Part shown: positions 3,250 through 38,258 of the stretch, one piece after another
Layout of the letters: each line of letters starts with the position of its first letter
Numbering within the stretch: the first letter of the stretch is position 1
From: Escherichia phage BUCT618
Sequence record: OM735461.1
Direction: 5' to 3' (one strand)
Length of the DNA: 38,270 nucleotides
Notes under the pieces: generated by a model
The model's input: the letters and a program-made list of their open reading frames with translations, nothing else
Told to the model about the DNA's origin: nothing
The model's database searches: none
Made by a program: the position numbers and the translations under genes

Positions 3250-3750
3250 TCAACCTCGGTATGATTTGATTTCACTGCGCACCCAGTTGCGGGGGATGGA
3301 GAATGTACCCATCTTCTTGCCTGATTCGGATGCCTCTTTGCACTCCAGTCTTCCATCCTCTTCTCGATACCTTGCATTGTTTACCACCTCTTTCAGCCAG
3401 AAGTCGCCATTGACTTTATGGGTGAAGGTTCGCAGTCCATCTTCGGTTGTGACATCTACGGCCATTTCTACATTGCGCAGGATGTTCACGACAGTTCTCC
3501 AGTCACGGAAGCCGTACTTCTTAACCAGGTCTATAGCGGGGATCAGGTCCGGGTCGATTTTGGTGGCTGCTTCTATGAAAGCCTGCTTATCAACCTCGGC
3601 TGACTCCTTGCGTCCTTTAACTTCACTCCGAAGTGTCCGTACTTCTGACTTAACGGATTTAAGTTCAGTGGTGAGTGATTTTACCTGCTCAATCAGCTTT
3701 TCAACATGAAGGGCCAGGTTTGCGTAGTGCGGGGTTGGTTTGCGTTTCAT
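3250..3750 (-). CDS. Hypothetical protein with N-terminal coiled coil
   Basis: ORF track starts at 3774, but the ATG at 3750 is preceded by AAGGAG at the right spacing, so the start is placed there. No confident domain call. Confidence 0.5.
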   Translation of the reverse strand: MKRKPTPHYANLALHVEKLIEQVKSLTTELKSVKSEVRTLRSEVKGRKESAEVDKQAFIEAATKIDPDLIPAIDLVKKYGFRDWRTVVNILRNVEMAVDVTTEDGLRTFTHKVNGDFWLKEVVNNARYREEDGRLECKEASESGKKMGTFSIPRNWVRSEIKSYRG

Positions 3751-4460: not shown

Positions 4461-4741
4461 AAAGCAGCAGAGAGCAGTTTGAGGAGTGGATTTACAAAAA
4501 TAGGATGCGAGGAGTGCCGTTTGATATTGAAGTTTTCGATGTCGACGGGGCAATTTTCTACAAATCGACAGAAACGCAAGGTCAATGGAATGCATGGCAG
4601 GCCAGCCGTGCGGCGATTGAGATTGAATTGCCAGACAAACTCATGGTTGAAGATGAGTTCGACAATGGGCATAACTGCGCAATCGACTACTGCGCTGATT
4701 CCATCCGTTCCGCTGGCATTACAGTAAAAGGTGATGCATGA
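4457..4741 (+). CDS. Hypothetical protein
   Basis: ATG at 4457 overlaps the upstream stop (ORF track begins at GTG 4451). Confidence 0.5.
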   Translation: MKSSREQFEEWIYKNRMRGVPFDIEVFDVDGAIFYKSTETQGQWNAWQASRAAIEIELPDKLMVEDEFDNGHNCAIDYCADSIRSAGITVKGDA

Positions 4742-4974
4742 ACATCTTCTCAATAATCAATATGGCGCAGGCCGCCAACCCGAAGGCAGAAGTCACCATC
4801 CGCAGCGGTGGTCATGATGCCATCATCATAACCTGGTATTGGGATGGCCAGTACCTGAACCGCAGCTATTGCAAGGCTCGAATGACCGGTCATCGCTTAG
4901 GCGAATATGAGGCGTGGAGAATTGCGTTCAATGCGGTTGCTCAGATTATGGGAGTCGTGGGGTGTGCGAAATGA
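4738..4974 (+). CDS. Hypothetical protein (78 aa)
   Basis: ATGA overlap with the neighbouring genes suggests translational coupling. Confidence 0.45.
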   Translation: MNIFSIINMAQAANPKAEVTIRSGGHDAIIITWYWDGQYLNRSYCKARMTGHRLGEYEAWRIAFNAVAQIMGVVGCAK

Positions 4975-5654
4975 TTATCTGGTCACTATTTGACGGTTCA
5001 GGTCTTATGGTCAAGCCGTGGGCGGAAGCAGGACATACTTGCTATTGTTTCAACTACGACGGAGCTGACCACGGTGACTACGCACGATTGGGCGCAAAAG
5101 TTGAACATGAAAATATCCACTATATAAACGCGTGGATTGATAATAAATTCGACTTCGACGTTGCGCCGGATATTATTTTCGCGTTCCCTCCGTGCACAGA
5201 CTTAGCCGTTAGCGGCGCGTCTCATTTCGAAACGAAGCGTAAGAAGAATGCAACGTTTCAGGTAGAGGCCGTGATTACATGTAAAGTGGCGGCTCGTCTG
5301 GCTAAAAGGTACAACGTACCTTATATGATTGAGAACCCGGTTAGCGTTCTTTCGTCTTTATGGCGCAAGCCTGACTACTCGTTCAATCCGTACGAATACG
5401 GCGGCTATTTACCCGAAGACGACACGCATCCAATGTTCCCTGAATACATAAAACCACGTGACGCATACCCTAAGAAGACATGTATTTGGGCCGGTAACGG
5501 TTTTGTCATGCCTGTTAAATCATGCGTTGCCGTCGGTGACGGGTACTCAAACCAACACAATAAATTAGGCGGTAAATCAGTGAGGACAAAAACAATCCGC
5601 AGCCTGACCCCGCGCGGATTTGCCCGTGCGGTATTTGAGGCTAACAAAGGTTGA
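4971..5654 (+). CDS. DNA cytosine-5 methyltransferase (compact)
   Basis: Motif I LFDGSG, catalytic PC motif FPPCTDLAVSG, ENV-like MIENP. Start placed at ATG 4971 (ATGA overlap) rather than the ORF-track start 4914. Confidence 0.65.
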   Translation: MIIWSLFDGSGLMVKPWAEAGHTCYCFNYDGADHGDYARLGAKVEHENIHYINAWIDNKFDFDVAPDIIFAFPPCTDLAVSGASHFETKRKKNATFQVEAVITCKVAARLAKRYNVPYMIENPVSVLSSLWRKPDYSFNPYEYGGYLPEDDTHPMFPEYIKPRDAYPKKTCIWAGNGFVMPVKSCVAVGDGYSNQHNKLGGKSVRTKTIRSLTPRGFARAVFEANKG

Positions 5655-17733: not shown

Positions 17734-19298
17734 CAGTATTTAACCCCCGTATCAGTTCCTTTCACTCTTGATGCGTTGTCTCTTCGTAGCTCCTGTCGTA
17801 TAGCCTGTGCAGTTGCTACCGGATTTTCAGCGCCATTGACAATAATCTCGCCAACTGTTGTGTTCCCGCTGTTAGTGGTAATGACGTTTGCTCTACCGGC
17901 ATTAGCTTGTGCCAGTCCCTGAGCCATTGTCGGCGGCGCAATAACAGTATTTCCTGGAATATCTAACTGCCGGTTTGCGCCTTTTACTATTTCCGCATAA
18001 CCCGGGATGCGCTCATGACCTGGAATATCAGGCTGTAGGTTGCTTTGTGTTCTATAATTCCTGTTTGGATTGTACGACCCGCCAGACAATGACGTCATAA
18101 GTTCCTGCATCCATTCAGGCATGGAGTTGTAAATGGCTTTGTCTATCCTTCCCAGCGCACCGATGATGTAATCAACAAGCCCGTCCCATATACCCCTTAT
18201 GCTGGTGTCCATTCCTTTGAAACTTTCAATTATGCGCCCTGTAACTGAGTCTCCGCCGGTGAAGTAGGTATATACATCCTGTATGGCAAGAATGAGCGCG
18301 CCGATTGCAAGTCCTACCAGCGCAGGACCAGCAGCAGCGGCAGCCCACGCCAGCAATGCACCTGCTCGCATTGTGGCGAATGCCGTTGTTAGCGCATTGG
18401 TTAGCGCGATTAGTTTTGCCCATGACGCGATTGCAGCAGAGCCAACCAGGTAAGGCATGGCAATAGCTGCAGCTATGCCCAGGTATTTGATGGAGGCAAT
18501 GAGACCTTTAATCGCAGCGGTAAGGCCATTAACTATCTCATCGCCGTGAAGGTCGAAAAACTCCTTCATCTGGCGTGTTATTCGCGTGAATATCGGCAGC
18601 AGGTTAGAGGCTACGATATTCCATAGTCCTTTGATACGCGCCTGTAACAAGTCCATTTCACGGGTATATTCCCGCGCCATGTCGATGTTTTCCTGGCTAA
18701 TTACCAGCCCGGATTCTCGCGCCTGCTTCTGAAGTGCCGCGATTTTTTCGGATGTCTGCGCAAAAAATTCACCGCCAACATCTGCAAGCCCGCCACCGAA
18801 AAGGGCATCAGCAAGGAATTGCCGCTTGCCCTGCTCTTTAACCTCGCTCAGTTTATTCCTGACAAGCCTAAAAAGCCCTTCGATATTGTTGCCGTACTGT
18901 TTGACCTGGGCCTGCGTGATGCCGATTTCGCCAAACGCATCAGCATTAGCCTTACCGTCAAGCGCAAACTCGCCAGCACGCATCGACAGCTCTTTCATGC
19001 CATCAGCAAGCTGGTCTTGCTCAATACCGAATGATTTTGCGGCGAAGGCGGTGGCCTGGAACGCCTCAGCGTTGACGTTCAGGCGCTTGGTTAACTGGTC
19101 AATCTCTGTTGCTGTATTGGCAAAGTCATTAACCATCGCATAAGCCGCACCGGTGACCGCTGTGGCCGCCGATGCTGCAATGGTGATAAGACCAGCCATA
19201 ACCTTAGTGACGTCCTTAACGGACTGCTCGGCATCGTTAAATGAAGCATCATCAACATCGAGGCCGATGTAACCCAAAAGCTCAGTGACAAATGCCAT
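17733..19298 (-). CDS. Tail tape measure protein
   Basis: 521 aa, Ala/Gly-rich hydrophobic segments and coiled-coil regions; follows the chaperone gene with its frameshift extension. Confidence 0.7.
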   Translation of the reverse strand: MAFVTELLGYIGLDVDDASFNDAEQSVKDVTKVMAGLITIAASAATAVTGAAYAMVNDFANTATEIDQLTKRLNVNAEAFQATAFAAKSFGIEQDQLADGMKELSMRAGEFALDGKANADAFGEIGITQAQVKQYGNNIEGLFRLVRNKLSEVKEQGKRQFLADALFGGGLADVGGEFFAQTSEKIAALQKQARESGLVISQENIDMAREYTREMDLLQARIKGLWNIVASNLLPIFTRITRQMKEFFDLHGDEIVNGLTAAIKGLIASIKYLGIAAAIAMPYLVGSAAIASWAKLIALTNALTTAFATMRAGALLAWAAAAAGPALVGLAIGALILAIQDVYTYFTGGDSVTGRIIESFKGMDTSIRGIWDGLVDYIIGALGRIDKAIYNSMPEWMQELMTSLSGGSYNPNRNYRTQSNLQPDIPGHERIPGYAEIVKGANRQLDIPGNTVIAPPTMAQGLAQANAGRANVITTNSGNTTVGEIIVNGAENPVATAQAIRQELRRDNASRVKGTDTGVKY

Positions 19299-19839
19299 TA
19301 GTCGGCCTCATAAAGTGATTCGTTGATTCTGCGATTAATCTCAGCTTCGACGTGAAGTGATTCGCAGCAGTCCAGGAACATTTGATAAGTCCATTTGTTC
19401 AGTACGTCATCCGGGCTTGCATAGTATGCTTTGGCTACGCGCATCACCGCCGCCATCTCATCAGAGTATGACGGCTGGATGTCACGCGTGTAAATCAGCT
19501 TTCCGCCGACCCTGAGTTCTCCGCCATCTTGCGTTGAAACATAGCGGTCGCCTTCCCCAAAAAACTTGGGTACATCTCCTTGACGTAAGCAAAGAAAACG
19601 GTATCGGCAAGGTCAATCTGGCCTTCAAAGAATTTGTCGAAATCAAGCGGCTGGTTATCGACTTCCGCGCCGTTCAGCATAGATTTTAGCAGTTCGTACT
19701 GCTCATCGCCTTGCAGTTTTCCCTGATAGGTCAGCGCCGCGATGTTCATCAGCTTGGCCTGAATGCGGAAGCCTTCGCGTGTGGTTGGCATGACTACGCT
19801 GAAAGTGTGTTCGCCTGCTTTGATGTCTTTGAGTTGCAT
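19298..19839 (-). CDS. Tail assembly chaperone GT-like fusion made by programmed -1 frameshift
   Basis: Slippery heptamer T-TTT-TTG at 19558-19564; the -1 frame is open for 86 codons and stops at TAA overlapping the tape measure ATG (TAATG). Confidence 0.55.
19495..19839 (-). CDS. Tail assembly chaperone (G-like, zero-frame product)
   Basis: 114 aa directly upstream of the tape measure gene; RBS GGAG. Confidence 0.65.
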   Translation of the reverse strand: MQLKDIKAGEHTFSVVMPTTREGFRIQAKLMNIAALTYQGKLQGDEQYELLKSMLNGAEVDNQPLDFDKFFEGQIDLADTVFFAYVKEMYPSFLGKATAMFQRKMAENSGSAES

Positions 19840-19866: not shown

Positions 19867-19876
19867 ATTATAACAC
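19867..19876 (-). promoter_or_regulatory. Candidate extended -10 promoter (TGtTATAAT) for the chaperone and tape measure genes
   Basis: Sits between a terminator and the chaperone RBS; the -35 is weak (TTTTCA). Confidence 0.4.
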
Positions 19877-19891
19877 GGAGGGAGGGGAATG

Positions 19892-19911
19892 AAAAAAGCC
19901 CCGTTAGGGGC
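19892..19911 (-). terminator. Rho-independent terminator closing the moron cassette
   Basis: GGCCCC-taac-GGGGC hairpin followed by TTTTTT, immediately after the stop at 19912-19914. Confidence 0.6.
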
Positions 19912-20160
19912 CTAGAATTTCACTACTTTTGCTGATTTCACATTTGGTGGGTCAAAGTCAGGTACAAATATTGGCATCCAGTGGGTTGCTTCCCTTATGA
20001 CATATCCACCTATCTCCTTGAATCTTGGCCTGGAGAATCTTTCTGTCCCTGCTCTTTTACTGACCTCATATATGCAAAATGGCTGAATGTATGCGCCATT
20101 AAAAACGTGAACTATTTCCCCAACGGCAGGCAATCTCTCACTGCACTTAATCCATTCCAT
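19912..20160 (-). CDS. DUF551-like small protein
   Basis: N-terminus MEWIKCSERLPAVGEIVHV is typical of DUF551 phage proteins. Confidence 0.55.
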   Translation of the reverse strand: MEWIKCSERLPAVGEIVHVFNGAYIQPFCIYEVSKRAGTERFSRPRFKEIGGYVIREATHWMPIFVPDFDPPNVKSAKVVKF

Positions 20161-20163
20161 CAG

Positions 20164-20292
20164 TCAACCCTCATCTTCATAATCAGAAAAACACTTAGCA
20201 GAAAGGTTATCCCCATCGCAAAGCGTTGCTTTCCCGTACACCTCAAATATCCATTTTGCAAAATCCAGCGTAAATTCGTCATATGCTGTCAT
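20164..20292 (-). CDS. Small ORF (42 aa), translationally coupled
   Basis: ATGA overlap with the upstream stop; not in the ORF track because it is under 60 aa. Confidence 0.3.
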   Translation of the reverse strand: MTAYDEFTLDFAKWIFEVYGKATLCDGDNLSAKCFSDYEDEG

Positions 20293-20588
20293 TTCTTCAC
20301 CCCATACTTACGGTTAATATCATACTCACTGGTACACAGCAGGATAATGAACTCGATAAACGCAACGAAAAAGGTGATTCCAGTCCAGCAGAACAGAATG
20401 TACATCACCCCGGAAAACGGTCGCCCCAGGTAGAAGCGGTGAATGCCAATAAAACCGAAGAAGAAGCAAAGCAGCACCGCGGTAACTTTGCTCTTCGTGT
20501 AAACCTGTTGCTTCGCGCCGCAGTTAGGGCAATCGGTCGCTGATTCGTGGATTTGTGTGCCGCAAGCGCGGCAGTAAGTGTTGCTCAT
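20289..20588 (-). CDS. Zinc-ribbon plus TM2-domain small membrane protein
   Basis: CRACG...CPNCG zinc ribbon, then two hydrophobic helices with GIHRFYLG. Confidence 0.6.
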   Translation of the reverse strand: MSNTYCRACGTQIHESATDCPNCGAKQQVYTKSKVTAVLLCFFFGFIGIHRFYLGRPFSGVMYILFCWTGITFFVAFIEFIILLCTSEYDINRKYGVKK

Positions 20589-20824
20589 TTACCCTCCCAT
20601 GATATGTATTTTGCGTGAAGTTTGTTTCTCATTTCCTGTAAATGAAATTCTGGAACTGTTACAAAGTGCTCACTGTTATCGTCTCCCTCTGGTATGAACT
20701 CAAAAAGAACGCCGTCAATCCATCTCATGGTTGCCGACCAAATCTGTCCATTGTGGCACCAAATTGAAACAAACTGACCACTGCCGGGAAGTTCATCAAG
20801 AAAATCAATTGTGCTTTCAGTCAT
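20585..20824 (-). CDS. Hypothetical protein (79 aa)
   Basis: ORF inside the moron cassette. Confidence 0.45.
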   Translation of the reverse strand: MTESTIDFLDELPGSGQFVSIWCHNGQIWSATMRWIDGVLFEFIPEGDDNSEHFVTVPEFHLQEMRNKLHAKYISWEGK

Positions 20825-20897
20825 TTGTTAACCCTCGTAAAAACAGACCCATCACTAAGCGCGGCAGTAGATGTTGCTCATTTTAATCACCCTTGTA

Positions 20898-21161
20898 TCA
20901 AATTTTACCTTCAGCCATCAGCCCTTCGACTAATGTCATTTTATAAGTCGCAGGCTTCCATGACTGCATTGCCCTTTCAGCGCCTTTGCGTGTTTTGTAA
21001 GGCTTAATGGATGGAACTATAGCGCTCACAACCCCCTGCCCATAACCTCTGTCTGTCTCCTGGAACACCCTGAAAAAGCCGGAGTCTTCTTTGACAACGA
21101 GTCGTTTAAAGGCATAAACACCAGTATCTTTGTTTAGGTAACGGCTAAGTATGATTTCCAT
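20898..21161 (-). CDS. Hypothetical protein (87 aa)
   Basis: First ORF of the cassette; RBS GGAG 5 nt upstream. Confidence 0.45.
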   Translation of the reverse strand: MEIILSRYLNKDTGVYAFKRLVVKEDSGFFRVFQETDRGYGQGVVSAIVPSIKPYKTRKGAERAMQSWKPATYKMTLVEGLMAEGKI

Positions 21162-21350
21162 GATTACTCCTTGTGGTGTTATTGGTGGGGTGGCGTGCTT
21201 CGTCGGTAGCCTCGGTTAAGTAACCGCACTAGCGTTCTCCGTTTCCGGTAGTGTGTGCGTTCTGGCCTCACGGTTGGGAATCCTGACACTACGATCAAGC
21301 CCCTGCGTTGCTCCTCTCCTGCTGCATCCTGCCGCCTCCCTATGTGTTGA

Positions 21351-21378
21351 ACTATACACCACATTTCTATTGTGTCAA
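21351..21378 (-). promoter_or_regulatory. Candidate sigma70 promoter for the moron cassette
   Basis: TTGACA, 16-bp spacer, TATAGT, directly downstream of the tube-gene terminator; gives a leader of about 180 nt. Confidence 0.5.
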
Positions 21379-21381
21379 CCA

Positions 21382-21401
21382 TTACATGCGTAAAAAAGGG
21401 G
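21382..21401 (-). terminator. Rho-independent terminator after the tail tube gene
   Basis: GGGGCTTCGGCCCC hairpin followed by T run, 18 nt after the stop. Confidence 0.65.
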
Positions 21402-21418
21402 CCGAAGCCCCAATTTGT

Positions 21419-21832
21419 TTAATCCAGTGCCTGACCTGTATGGATGATATAGCCATCCACAAACTTGAAGGTGAATTGCACGATGGTTAACTCCTGCGCC
21501 TTCACCAGGGCCGGAGGCCGCGCCAGCATCGCCTCTTTTGCGCCGGCAACCTCGCCAGTGCTGTTTCGGTCAATCAACAGGAGTGGCAGCGGTTTGCCAG
21601 CCTCATAAAGCGCCTGCCATGCCGCCTTTGTCGGGCTTACGTCCTGCAAGGAGACAACGCAAGTGCCTGTTTTATCAAGGGATTTGACGAAAGCGCCACC
21701 ACCTTTAATGGAAGCGTAGGTGTTCCAGATGTCATTGTTAAATGTAAAGTTGAACATCTCGCCATTGGCTACAGCTCTTGCCGCCACTCCGCCCCAGCTT
21801 AATGTAACTTTCTCAGGGTTATAAATTGGCAC
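21419..21832 (-). CDS. Tail tube protein
   Basis: 137-aa ORF immediately downstream of the sheath gene. Confidence 0.55.
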   Translation of the reverse strand: MPIYNPEKVTLSWGGVAARAVANGEMFNFTFNNDIWNTYASIKGGGAFVKSLDKTGTCVVSLQDVSPTKAAWQALYEAGKPLPLLLIDRNSTGEVAGAKEAMLARPPALVKAQELTIVQFTFKFVDGYIIHTGQALD

Positions 21833-30303: not shown

Positions 30304-30355
30304 TATCAGTCCCTCATGAAAATTAACGTCAGTATATCACGGAGGATTGGATAAG

Positions 30356-30382
30356 AAAAAACCCGCCGAAGCGGGTCTTTTT
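30356..30382 (-). terminator. Rho-independent terminator (bidirectional shape) between the tRNA and portal gene
   Basis: ACCCGC-cgaa-GCGGGT hairpin flanked by A run and T run. Confidence 0.6.
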
Positions 30383-30386
30383 GATT

Positions 30387-30463
30387 TGGCGCACACGGAC
30401 GGATTTGAACCTTCAATCAGCCGATTATAAGTCGGTTGCTTTAACCAATTAAGCTACGCATGC
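30387..30463 (-). tRNA. tRNA, 77 nt, anticodon UAU (would read AUA, Ile)
   Basis: Hand-folded cloverleaf: 7-bp acceptor stem with two G-U pairs, D loop AATTGGTTA, anticodon loop CUUAUAA, T loop TTCAAAT, discriminator G, encoded CCA. One mismatch each in the anticodon and T stems. Confidence 0.65.
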
Positions 30464-30498
30464 GAAATTTGCTGGTTTAAGCATTGCCAGCGTGCTTT

Positions 30499-30564
30499 CT
30501 TAATATCCAGCCCCGTAACCCATACATACCCCTACATATGATTGCGATAACGCTGGATATTAAG
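30499..30564. repeat. Perfect 13-bp inverted repeat with 40-nt spacer
   Basis: CTTAATATCCAGC at 30499-30511 and GCTGGATATTAAG at 30552-30564. Confidence 0.6.
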
Positions 30565-30818
30565 TGTTGCGGCGTTTCGCGATTAACTGAAACTGGCATA
30601 ACAATGGATGCAACCCTATCAAAATAATCAATTTGGCATTACCACAACGGCAAGAGCACTGCATGGTTTTACCATTACATCCGAAGATTTATCTGGTGTA
30701 GTCAATGCCCTTGCCTGTTGTGTGCCGGTTACGCGTCCGGCGTCAACCAAGTTGACCGATTCACAGACACAACGGGAGCAACGTTGTGATGTAAGTATCA
30801 CCCAATCTGATTATCGTG

Positions 30819-36356: not shown

Positions 36357-36395
36357 TTGGTTAAGCGAGGTTATGACGATTATGGAGAAGTTTCG

Positions 36396-38258
36396 ATGAT
36401 TACAAATGATGGTGTTAAGTTAATTCATGGTGATTGCCTGGAGGTGCTGAAGGGAATGCCAGACAATTCCGTGGATAGCATAGTCACAGACCCGCCTTAT
36501 GGACTTTCATTCATGGGGAAGAAATGGGACTACGAAGTTCCTGACCAGGCTATCTGGGAGGAATGCCTACGCGTCCTTAAGCCTGGTGGTCATCTGCTGG
36601 CCTTTGCTGGTACACGAACGCAGCACCGCATGGCTGTTCGCATTGAGGACGCTGGGTTCGAGATACGGGACATGATTGCATGGGTATATGGCAGCGGGTT
36701 TCCTAAAAGTGCGAACGTTTCAAAGCAGATAGACCAGCAAGAAAGAAACAGATGGGTTAAAATCATCAAGGCGATTGATAAAACAAACCTTTCTGAAATG
36801 GCTGAACTATGGATAAACTCAAGAAATGCGAATGCTGCGGGGCTTTCATTCCAAAGGAATCAAACCGAAGCTGGGCTCAATACGCAAAAAAACGGTTTTG
36901 CTCACGGAAGTGTTCTGCTTCAAGTCAGTCACAAAAACTGCGATGCGCTTGCAGTCATTGCGGAACTAAATTCGACCGAAGCCCATCCCACAAGCGAGGG
37001 GAATTGCAGTTCTGCACAATCGAATGCCGAAAGCACTATCACGGCATCGAAAAGCCATGCGACCACTGCGGAAAAATCACCAGAAAACCGCGAAGCAACG
37101 CTGTGCATGGTGGATTTTTCTGCTCTACACAGTGCATGGGGCTGGCAAGGCGAAAGCAGGGCGGACAAACTCAAGGCCGTCGAAGCCCTGAAGATTTGGC
37201 TTGGAAGAAAGCCATCCTCAAGGCGGGAGGCTACAAGTGCGCTATGTGCGGCACTGACAGACGACTTGAAGCGCATCACGTTAAGCCAATCAAAGACTTT
37301 CCTGAGCTACGACACGACACGTCAAATGGCTTGTGCGTCTGCCATCAGTGCCACTATTACGGAATCCACGGCGGCAAGCCTAATTTCATTCACGGCAGGT
37401 ACTCTAAAAAGTAAGGCCATCGACAAGGCGGCTGGTGCGGAGCGCGAGGTGGTCGGCAGCTACGAGGTGACTCGCGACATGTCTGGCGGATCATGGGCGG
37501 AACTTCACGGAAAACCGAACAGCGCCAAGATGCACAACATAACCGCACCAGCCACCGACGCCGCAAAACAGTGGCAAGGCTGGGGTACAGCCCTAAAGCC
37601 AGCACTTGAACCAATCACCGTAGCACGCAAGCCGTTCAAAGGCACTGTGGCGGCTAACGTGATGGAGTGGGGAACGGGGGCGCTGAATATTGATGGGTGC
37701 AGGGTGGTGGGGGATGTTTGGACTAGAAGAACACCTTATAAAGACAACATCAAAGGCGGACAGCTTCACGCCGCAAAAAGTGAATCAACCTACGCATGCG
37801 GCCCTCAATCTTGCAATGAATTGGGGCGCTGGCCCGCGAACCTGATTCACGACGGAAGCCATGAGGTGATGTCGGAGTTTCCTGCAAATGTTGTCGCGAA
37901 CGGAGGTAGCGGCGTATTTAACCAGCACGCATGGATGCGCTACGAGACGCCGCAGAACATCAATCGCAGCAAAGGCAGCGCAGCTCGCTTCTTCTACTGC
38001 GCTAAGGCCAGCAAGAAAGACCGAGGCGAAGGTAATAACCACCCTACCGTCAAGCCAACCGACCTCATGGCGTACCTTTGCCGCCTTGTAACGCCTCCTG
38101 GTGGCGTGGTTCTCGACCCGTTCATGGGCAGCGGTAGCACCGGCAAGGCAGCCGTGCGCGAAGGCTTCCGCTTCATCGGCATTGAAATGGACGCGGAGTA
38201 CCTTGCAATCGCTGAGGCGAGAATTGCGCATGATGCAGGGAAGCAGACTGAGAAATAA
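36396..38258 (+). CDS. DNA N6-adenine / N4-cytosine methyltransferase (beta class) carrying a 630-nt in-frame insertion
   Basis: DPPY motif (SIVTDPPYG) near the N-terminus and FxGxG motif (DPFMGSGSTG) near the C-terminus. Start placed at ATG 36396 after GGAG (ORF track begins at TTG 36357). Residues about 140-350 are Ser/Thr/Ala-rich low complexity. Confidence 0.75.
   Translation: MITNDGVKLIHGDCLEVLKGMPDNSVDSIVTDPPYGLSFMGKKWDYEVPDQAIWEECLRVLKPGGHLLAFAGTRTQHRMAVRIEDAGFEIRDMIAWVYGSGFPKSANVSKQIDQQERNRWVKIIKAIDKTNLSEMAELWINSRNANAAGLSFQRNQTEAGLNTQKNGFAHGSVLLQVSHKNCDALAVIAELNSTEAHPTSEGNCSSAQSNAESTITASKSHATTAEKSPENREATLCMVDFSALHSAWGWQGESRADKLKAVEALKIWLGRKPSSRREATSALCAALTDDLKRITLSQSKTFLSYDTTRQMACASAISATITESTAASLISFTAGTLKSKAIDKAAGAEREVVGSYEVTRDMSGGSWAELHGKPNSAKMHNITAPATDAAKQWQGWGTALKPALEPITVARKPFKGTVAANVMEWGTGALNIDGCRVVGDVWTRRTPYKDNIKGGQLHAAKSESTYACGPQSCNELGRWPANLIHDGSHEVMSEFPANVVANGGSGVFNQHAWMRYETPQNINRSKGSAARFFYCAKASKKDRGEGNNHPTVKPTDLMAYLCRLVTPPGGVVLDPFMGSGSTGKAAVREGFRFIGIEMDAEYLAIAEARIAHDAGKQTEK
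36783..37412 (+). mobile_element. Putative in-frame insertion carrying the HNH gene, bounded by duplicated KAIDK codons
   Basis: AAGGCGATTGATAAA at 36768-36782 and AAGGCCATCGACAAG at 37413-37427 both encode K-A-I-D-K; the 630 nt between them is a multiple of three. Confidence 0.45.
36809..37414 (+). CDS. HNH endonuclease with three N-terminal zinc-ribbon repeats, nested in the +2 frame of the methyltransferase gene
   Basis: Three C-x2-C ... FC-x3-C repeats, then CAMCGTDRRLEAHHVKPIKDFPELRHDTSNGLCVCHQCH. Confidence 0.75.
   Translation: MDKLKKCECCGAFIPKESNRSWAQYAKKRFCSRKCSASSQSQKLRCACSHCGTKFDRSPSHKRGELQFCTIECRKHYHGIEKPCDHCGKITRKPRSNAVHGGFFCSTQCMGLARRKQGGQTQGRRSPEDLAWKKAILKAGGYKCAMCGTDRRLEAHHVKPIKDFPELRHDTSNGLCVCHQCHYYGIHGGKPNFIHGRYSKK

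Follow-up and report, generated by a model that had tools for sequence, protein, structure and literature searches.

Phage morons, in the definition of Hendrix and Juhala and with examples in HK97 and HK022, are extra non-structural genes in a late operon that carry their own promoter and terminator and have a distinct base composition. Here we describe a moron-like cassette of five small genes in Escherichia phage BUCT618 (OM735461.1), the 38,270-nt sequence of which is referred to throughout as the window; all features of the cassette are on the minus strand, between a tail tube gene and a tail chaperone gene. The cassette resembles morons in lying within a late operon, in having its own predicted promoter and terminators, and in a G+C content that differs from that of its flanks. 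It differs from them in that its host phage is apparently virulent, no empty site was found among its relatives, and its content is mosaic. In one sublineage there is also a large, conserved and structured RNA between the promoter and the cargo, and it is this leader RNA, apparently an undescribed family present in several otherwise unrelated enterobacterial phage groups, that is the main subject here.

Four types of RNA offer comparisons for such a leader. HK022 putL and putR are cis-acting, factor-independent RNAs of about 70 nt with two hairpins, located near the early promoters. The 5' untranslated region (UTR) of ompA reportedly acts as a 5'-terminal mRNA stabiliser (Emory, Bouvet and Belasco, 1992). 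CsrB contains about 18 GGA sites, and the mRNA leaders bound by CsrA include those of flhDC and pgaA. The P1 c4 and P4 CI RNAs are derived from phage operon leaders behind a constitutive promoter.

When the whole locus was compared with phage sequences using megablast, the sole match was to positions 21360-21174 (query 241-427), a segment running from the -10 hexamer through the leader to just before the Shine-Dalgarno (SD) sequence. It is 96.5% identical in Salmonella phage PT1, 93.6% identical in Escherichia phage Alux-21, and about 83% identical in Arya, IME279, MQ-4 and the swan01/tunus group. A more sensitive search located the segment at 173 places in 171 phage records with 80-96% identity, the listed carriers including Dhillonvirus, Warwickvirus, Jilinvirus, Sortsnevirus and other enterobacterial phages; the copies closest to that of the window (94-96% identity) are those of Jilinvirus siphoviruses. 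In every phage examined the RNA is in an intergenic gap, directly upstream of the next genes and on the same strand. These downstream genes vary by lineage, and include those for a lipoprotein, the TM2 protein, EaA and several unrelated proteins of unknown function, and in three lineages the RNA adjoins primase or helicase genes. No copy of the RNA was found among 5,426 complete E. coli genomes or 72,556 plasmids. A 16-mer search of genome and metagenome contigs yielded seven real copies, with about 230 of 240 matches judged to be due to chance. One contig (L088, QFQS01000013.1) is labelled as a Cereibacter sphaeroides metagenome-assembled genome and contains an IME279-like copy scoring 179 bits, probably because a contig of an enterobacterial phage was mis-binned.

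The leader RNA (21176-21346) is recognised in the window by a covariance model (CM), R1, with a score of 177.4 bits (E = 9e-44), and is predicted to form a multi-helix domain of about 165 nt, closed by helix P1 and with well-supported internal helices. In the window copy P1 is formed by 21336-21340 with 21188-21192, and encloses the P2 hairpin with its AGGA loop (21321-21335), P3 (21276-21303), P4a (21266-21267 with 21214-21215), the long-range helix P4 (21254-21260 with 21223-21231), and the P5 hairpin (21237-21251); a possible sixth helix, P6, would pair 21310-21314 with 21206-21210. Among 25 distinct copies 68 alignment columns are invariant, while several of the helices are wholly different in sequence. 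P1 is found as GGGCGGCG/CGCCGCCC, GACGGGC/GCCCGUC, GUCGAC/GUCGAC and AGGCAG/CUGCCU, P4 is represented by eight different complementary sequence pairs, and P5, which is usually capped by a GAAA or GCAA loop, has three pairs that flip. The informative changes in P3 are all compensatory (C-G to U-A in copy L272, and U-A to G-U in Lumpael). The P2 loop always contains AGGA, as CAGGAUG in most copies, and two further GGA motifs are conserved. Candidate P6 has one A-U to G-C switch that tracks a single phylogenetic split, and an all-against-all covariation scan revealed no reliable tertiary pairs, because most of its signal came from the division into two main sequence types.

These pairings were assessed in two alignments. 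In a MAFFT alignment that was not fitted to the structure, 82.2% of cells pair compared with 72.8% in shuffled alignments, 17 pairs change on both sides, and none of 500 shuffles equalled this; controls in which the structure was slid along the alignment gave 31-53%. In the CM-fitted alignment, which leans towards the model structure, 86.4% of cells pair compared with 73.2% when shuffled and 28-51% in the slid controls, 21-23 pairs change on both sides, and again no shuffle out of 500 matched this. RNAalifold applied to the MAFFT alignment missed P1, P2 and P4, because the variable helices are misaligned there. Three constant or nearly constant G-U pairs would be A-C mismatches on the opposite strand, indicating that the fold is strand-specific. 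The covariance model separates true copies, which score 159-187 bits and occur once per locus, from about 0.65 Mb of unrelated DNA in which nothing scores above 15 bits. A preliminary description of the locus had treated the leader, given as about 180 nt, as a plain spacer, a view that is no longer tenable given that it is the most conserved and most unusual part of the locus and forms a structured RNA in several phage groups.

The RNA does not correspond to any family that we could find. Across the whole window none of the 4,227 models of Rfam 15 matches the leader at the gathering threshold, the only match being to a tRNA at 30390-30463, and scanning the leader at E-values up to 10 returned two chance-level matches only. 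ARAGORN reported just a tRNA-Ile in the window and made no tRNA-like or tmRNA-like call in the leader. A tRNA-like 'ACCA' following P1 was considered and dropped, as even very close relatives differ in it (ACCA to AUCA, and ACCA to ACUCA). No description of the RNA emerged from the literature, whether searched by topic or by sequence string. Most of the leader matches carry no annotated feature, and many GenBank records give a hypothetical protein at this position; these are probably mis-annotations, since the open frames differ between lineages. The annotated PT1 open reading frame (ORF) covering the RNA (QIG65642.1) is encoded by the other strand. The HK578 frame continues into gp44.

The surroundings of the RNA are as regular as its core. 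In the window it follows a near-consensus promoter (TTGACA-16-TATAGT, 21351-21378), and a leader of about 183 nt extends from the predicted transcription start at about 21344 to the ATG at 21161, with no credible gene inside it. At all 23 of the loci measured a -10 hexamer is located 7-11 nt before P1, whereas the quality of the -35 varies widely. Downstream, every copy read has an SD sequence and start codon close to P1, at a distance estimated by eye as about 25-55 nt, across a C/A-rich, G-poor linker; in the window this linker is unstructured and occupies 21162-21187, including the SD of the first cassette gene (AAGGAG, 21167-21172). No terminator is present between P1 and the SD in any copy read. 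In three independent lineages the RNA is preceded by an intrinsic terminator at a distance of 51-61 nt, and in most lineages a strong terminator lies 0.5-2.8 kb downstream. The upstream terminator of the window, T1, follows the tube gene at 21392-21411 and consists of the hairpin GGGGCTTCGGCCCC (21398-21411, GGGGC-UUCG-GCCCC) and a T6/U6 run down to 21392.

Two variations on this arrangement were seen. Between RNA and SD, Alux-21, PT1 and MQ-4 have a G+C-rich hairpin that is not followed by a U tract and may serve in processing or stabilisation. HK578 has a strong intrinsic terminator at 3619-3638, immediately after the first gene downstream of the RNA, with equivalents in two other carriers (L009 and L014). 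No promoter-like site was found in HK578 before the genes beyond this terminator, which include an exonuclease gene, and the terminator could be an attenuator or read-through point.

The window has no close relative among 50,697 phage records, the only matches there being two short non-coding patches. It was compared with seven related contigs (L016, also present as L286; L250; L200; L285; L287; L288; and L289), which together with the window make eight related genomes. Four of these (L285, L287, L288 and L289) lack exactly the ~170-nt RNA segment and retain T1, the -35 and spacer, the SD and a gene coding for a TM2 protein; the covariance model has no match in any of the four. In an alignment of the junctions (A5), RNA-bearing and RNA-less relatives share T1 and TTGACA with the spacer that follows it. 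After the spacer, the RNA-less genomes continue as GTGTATGCTTACCACATCAACCA-CAAGGAG...ATG, with TATGCT as the -10, and the RNA-bearing genomes as GTGTATAGTT-CAACACAT, about 165 nt of RNA, and then CAATAACACCACAAGGAG...ATG. As read from this alignment, an original leader of about 21 nt together with its -10 was replaced in the window sublineage by a new -10, the ~170-nt RNA and its linker, with putative recombination joints at the -10 and near the SD. The promoter -35 and spacer are ancestral to this phage group, and the -10 arrived with the RNA. That four close relatives lack precisely this segment argues that the RNA is a discrete, acquired and dispensable module. It was present in all five Jilinvirus-type copies retrieved and in only some relatives of the window phage, and as the window copy is closest to those of Jilinvirus and the RNA is patchy among window relatives, transfer was most likely from a Jilinvirus-like phage to the myovirus lineage of the window.

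As to what the RNA does, the explanation that we prefer, with a probability of roughly 0.4, is that it serves at the 5' terminus as a portable, cis-acting stability or expression domain that works through a host factor. The cassette mRNA would begin with the RNA, the compact P1-closed fold of which would leave at most about 4-5 unpaired 5' nucleotides, and the RNA would work in cis for whatever ORF follows. A conserved host factor would probably be bound, which would protect the 5' end against decay dependent on RNase E and RppH and perhaps aid the loading of ribosomes on the nearby SD. Such binding would explain both the 68 invariant positions and the restriction of the RNA to phages of Enterobacterales. 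The terminator 51-61 nt upstream would keep the RNA at the primary 5' end and, because the following ORF differs in nearly every lineage, any effect must be generic. The promoter-proximal -10, the close SD and ORF, and the flanking terminators fit an insulated unit with a transcript that begins with the fold.

In several respects this resembles the ompA 5' UTR: pairing begins only a few nucleotides from the 5' end, unrelated coding regions can follow the element, and the ribosome-binding site behind it is accessible. Stabilisers of the ompA type, however, are simple hairpins with little sequence constraint, whereas the leader RNA has its many invariant positions and a multi-helix junction. CsrA is the one concrete candidate for the host factor, suggested by the P2 AGGA hairpin, in which the CAGGAUG of most copies is the CsrB repeat. 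Like CsrB, RsmZ and CsrA-bound leaders, the RNA presents AGGA in a short hairpin loop and has other conserved GGAs, near the 5' end and at the SD. Unlike CsrB and the Rsm RNAs, it has just one canonical hairpin site, it matches none of the CsrB, CsrC or Rsm families in Rfam, and most of its fold has no counterpart in them.

Several considerations count against a cis-acting stability or expression domain. The function is itself deduced from sequence, and a 165-nt fold with 68 invariant positions far exceeds what a 5' stabiliser needs, for which a simple hairpin is enough. A core that is invariant despite cargo turnover, the single copy, and the patchy gain would be no less expected of an autonomous RNA product, and the extra hairpin of Alux-21, PT1 and MQ-4 could mark processing that frees the RNA. 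The link to CsrA consists of one hairpin-loop motif and two other GGAs. With regard to the fold, the minimum free energy of the single sequence is no better than that of shuffled sequences (z = -0.08), and RNAalifold on the CM alignment proposes a different long-range helix, built from invariant bases, that competes with P3; the pairing of the invariant core therefore appears ambiguous between these two helices. It is because the fold seems over-elaborate, and because the invariant core, single copy and patchy gain suit a released RNA nearly as well, that we place the cis-acting explanation no higher.

The alternative that survives best is that the RNA is itself the payload: a horizontally mobile, protein-free RNA gene with a product that is cleaved from the 5' end of the transcript and, in trans, mimics the target of, soaks up or inhibits a conserved host factor such as CsrA, or a small-molecule signal, with the ORFs riding on its promoter. 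Its core is invariant across phage groups in which P1, P4 and P5 have fully diverged, and the cargo changes between genomes that are about 91% identical. The one copy at each locus, the dispensability and patchiness among close relatives (as for many accessory or counter-defence genes), the aptamer-like architecture without an expression platform, and the additional hairpin between RNA and SD in some phages are all in keeping with a released product. No copy read, however, has its own terminator, and an SD and ORF are close behind every one; no complementary target or partner was identified, and there are three conserved GGA motifs only, compared with about 18 in CsrB. We consider a released RNA somewhat unlikely. 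The fuller proposal goes further: recombination at the -10 and SD boundaries would carry this autonomous RNA gene from one virulent enterobacterial phage to another, unrelated one, and its product, a decoy or sponge of the aptamer type for a conserved host factor or for a signalling molecule of immunity or physiology, would be an RNA-only host-takeover or counter-defence factor. This strikes us as distinctly unlikely. The P1 c4 and P4 CI RNAs provide a partial parallel, as the leader RNA is similarly at the 5' end of an operon and could be processed out of the leader. In contrast to them, it has no match to the Rfam C4 family, is much larger, and is found in virulent phages, and there are no complementary target sites downstream of it, as follows from the variation in cargo.

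A put-like role, in which the nascent RNA would bind the RNA polymerase that made it and cause processive read-through of the cassette-end terminator T2 and other terminators, seems to us very unlikely. The leader RNA is like the put RNAs in being promoter-proximal (the -10 preceding P1 closely in all members) and portable with its promoter, and its extreme conservation would suit host RNA polymerase as the partner. The HK578 terminator behind the first gene, with no promoter before the next genes, and the position of T2 in the window, where it separates the cassette from essential tail genes, would also make sense of an antiterminator. The Jilinvirus context argues the other way, as the downstream terminator there lies just before late activator and lysis genes and read-through would be harmful. 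Moreover, the window has a separate promoter-like site after T2, the RNA-less relatives retain the same T2, and swan01 and IME279 have no downstream terminator within 3 kb. The leader RNA also has about 165 nt and at least five helices with no sequence similarity to put, a fold unlike the two hairpins of put.

A P1-closed multi-helix junction with invariant junction nucleotides and covarying helices, placed in a 5' UTR with an SD shortly after P1, is also what would be expected of a riboswitch, its junction being an aptamer that recognises a metabolite or signalling nucleotide and so sets the translation or stability of the downstream mRNA. There is, however, no terminator/antiterminator pair, and on inspection neither the 3' strand of P1 nor the linker is complementary to the SD. 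The downstream genes are functionally unrelated and do not form a coherent set, and the RNA has no similarity to any Rfam aptamer at E-values up to 10, such that a riboswitch appears highly improbable.

We next consider the cassette as a whole. Along the minus strand the order is tube gene, T1, promoter, leader, five ORFs, T2 and tail chaperone gene, and all of the elements that the preliminary description placed between the tube and chaperone genes are present. Its two terminators are present, with coordinates that were off by about 10 nt: T1 is at 21392-21411 rather than 21382-21401, and T2, at the cassette end, is at 19889-19913, with its hairpin at 19896-19913 followed by a T run. No other strong intrinsic terminator occurs on the minus strand of the ~19-kb structural operon. 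The near-consensus promoter is also present; it matches 11 of 12 consensus positions for sigma-70 and is the top-scoring match within the 19.6-kb structural region. Only two matches of at least 11/12 occur in the whole window, counting both strands, compared with 0.63 expected in shuffled sequences, the other being TTGACA-17-GATAAT at 3253 on the minus strand. The promoter-like site beyond T2, in front of the chaperone gene, is TTTTCA-17-TGtTATAAT (19867-19895, with an extended -10), and is a consensus match only.

The five ORFs had been described as tightly coupled, which applies to the last four. ORF87 (87 aa, phrog_27467) is at 20898-21161 and is set apart from the others by 73 nt. ORF79 (79 aa, phrog_6314; 20585-20824), a 99-aa membrane protein gene with zinc-ribbon and TM2 domains (20289-20588), ORF42 (42 aa; 20164-20292) and an 82-aa DUF551 protein gene (19912-20160) follow with 4-nt overlaps or 3-nt gaps. 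The G+C content of the cargo ORFs is 0.44 (range 0.40-0.49), compared with 0.53 for the sheath and tube genes and 0.51 for the chaperone-tape measure region. The unit is thus compositionally foreign; it is also insulated, with its own predicted promoter and two terminators, as had been proposed. In PHROG and Pfam scans of the flanks the tube candidate (21419-21832, minus strand) matches phrog_280, 'virion structural protein', the sheath matches phrog_205, and the tape measure protein is also supported, while the 114-aa tail chaperone candidate has a weak match only (E = 2.6e-4). Behind the chaperone ORF (19298-19839, minus strand) the -1 frame is open for about 100 codons up to the start of the tape measure gene, with a 52-aa ORF at 19298-19456; this is a candidate for a programmed frameshift, although no slippery site was identified for it within 19298-19839.

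The preliminary description regarded the five genes as a unit, and comparison with the related genomes does not bear this out, as the gene sets vary and the cassette is not inherited as one block. Reading outward from the promoter, the RNA in the window is followed by ORF87, a 27-nt scar, ORF79, the TM2 gene, ORF42 and the DUF551 gene. The RNA is also present in L016 and L250, which share the arrangement ORF55, TM2 and DUF551-like, and in L200, with TM2, ORF93, ORF138 and DUF551-like. Among the RNA-less genomes, L285 has another ORF, then TM2, ORF42 and further genes; L287 has TM2, ORF178, ORF90 and ORF138; L288 has TM2, ORF71 and DUF551-like; and L289 has ORF87, TM2, ORF209 and DUF551. L288 additionally has an HNH endonuclease-like gene upstream of the promoter, a 180-aa ORF recognised by its sequence only (4496-5038), between the tube gene and the cassette terminator and promoter. 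What is constant across the eight genomes is T1, the -35 and spacer, the TM2/zinc-ribbon gene and T2, the TM2/zinc-ribbon gene being the sole cargo gene present in all eight. ORF79 is found only in the window, and most relatives have divergent versions of the DUF551 protein. T1 is conserved with or without the leader RNA, and T2 is conserved with a G-U to A-U change that preserves the stem. No tube/chaperone site without a cassette was seen among the eight genomes, each of which holds some cassette there. The scar (ATGAGCAACATCTACTGCCGCGCTTAG, 20857-20883, between ORF87 and ORF79) duplicates the 5' end of the TM2 gene, is 100% identical to the start of that gene in L016 and L200, and ends in a stop codon; it was presumably left by the insertion of cargo before the TM2 gene. 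Taken from these comparisons, the tube/chaperone junction behaves as a hotspot that holds an insulated accessory transcription unit composed of T1, a predicted sigma-70 promoter, cargo and T2.

Profile searches support the domains named in the preliminary description. In a Pfam scan the 99-aa protein has a TM2 domain with E = 2.8e-18 and an N-terminal zinc-ribbon with E = 3.7e-5, narrowly missing the Pfam cutoff, and the 82-aa protein matches DUF551 with E = 1.6e-9; these are the only domain matches among the five proteins. DUF551 is described as a portable domain of unknown function that occurs in YfdS and in an Ea22 variant of a Stx phage (PMC10834534). Four of the five ORFs belong to PHROG families, all of unknown function, and ORF42 has no family match in the Pfam or PHROG scans, its DNA being conserved in L285. 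Homologues of ORF87 (57 records, 62-68% identity) are found in very different and mostly lytic phages, and in the two examined the homologue is a small gene standing by itself, with neighbours on the opposite strand in one of them. Searches of the five proteins against PADLOC, NCBIfam and PDB sequences gave nothing useful and no defence-system family, and nor did the literature on TM2 domains in phages prove useful. As the ORFs vary between genomes that are about 91% identical they cannot be essential tail proteins, and the five cargo proteins are most simply viewed as accessory, non-virion proteins, as had been proposed.

The earlier suggestions of defence genes and of expression from a prophage fare less well. 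None of the five proteins has a PADLOC family match, and prophage expression is unlikely because no integrase or repressor is present among the 30 larger ORFs scanned; moreover, the leader is missing from the E. coli genomes and plasmids searched. The window does encode terminase subunits, helicase/primase, RecT/RecE, SSB, endolysin, portal and major head proteins. That the locus is just a plain moron with an inert leader, the proteins of which confer exclusion or defence from a prophage, is thus less probable even than a riboswitch. The promoter and terminators, lower G+C content, small non-virion proteins and a TM2 membrane protein of a kind compatible with exclusion would all be expected of such an element, whereas the lack of lysogeny genes among the scanned ORFs and of the leader in E. 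coli genomes, the strong selection under which the leader appears to be, the absence of PADLOC matches, and the failure of the cassette to behave as a unit across relatives would not. The cassette is better described as a real but ordinary, mosaic, moron-type accessory block in an apparently virulent myovirus of ~39 kb.

That the conserved segment is not an RNA at all is scarcely credible, even though open frames span it in the window (a 67-aa ORF at 21179-21382, minus strand) and in HK578, hypothetical proteins are widely annotated there, and primase or helicase genes adjoin it in three lineages: a small protein gene was rejected on the grounds that the frames differ by lineage and are broken by 1-2-nt indels and that substitutions are compensatory and strand-specific, a replication origin (unlikely at least in this lineage) because the RNA-less L285, L287, L288 and L289 exist as near-full-length phage contigs, and a transposable repeat resembling miniature inverted-repeat transposable elements (MITEs) or enterobacterial repetitive intergenic consensus (ERIC) sequences because there is a single copy per locus and P1 covaries instead of forming conserved terminal inverted repeats.

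Two other features of the window were recorded. The second non-coding patch shared horizontally with other phages, 30344-30744, contains a tRNA-Ile(UAU) gene (30387-30463, minus strand) and about 280 nt of flanking non-coding DNA. Many siphoviruses of Salmonella and Escherichia, including 64795_sal3, SeSz-2, LPSTLL and EcoIv28_Lewi, match it with 88-93% identity. Two DNA methyltransferases are encoded on the plus strand, at 4914-5654 and 36357-38258.

The cassette itself reflects routine turnover of accessory genes in a phage late operon, and the main interest of the locus is in its leader RNA. This RNA is unannotated or mis-annotated in at least 171 sequenced genomes of coliphages and other enterobacterial phages, including widely used collections (BASEL phages, HK578, and tunus and swan01-like phages), and recognising it would correct many genome annotations. 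If it is a portable stabiliser or expression module it would provide a new tool-like part for expression constructs, and if it is a released decoy or polymerase-binding RNA it would represent a new host-phage interaction. The natural occurrence of RNA-bearing and RNA-less sister genomes makes the function of the leader RNA directly testable.

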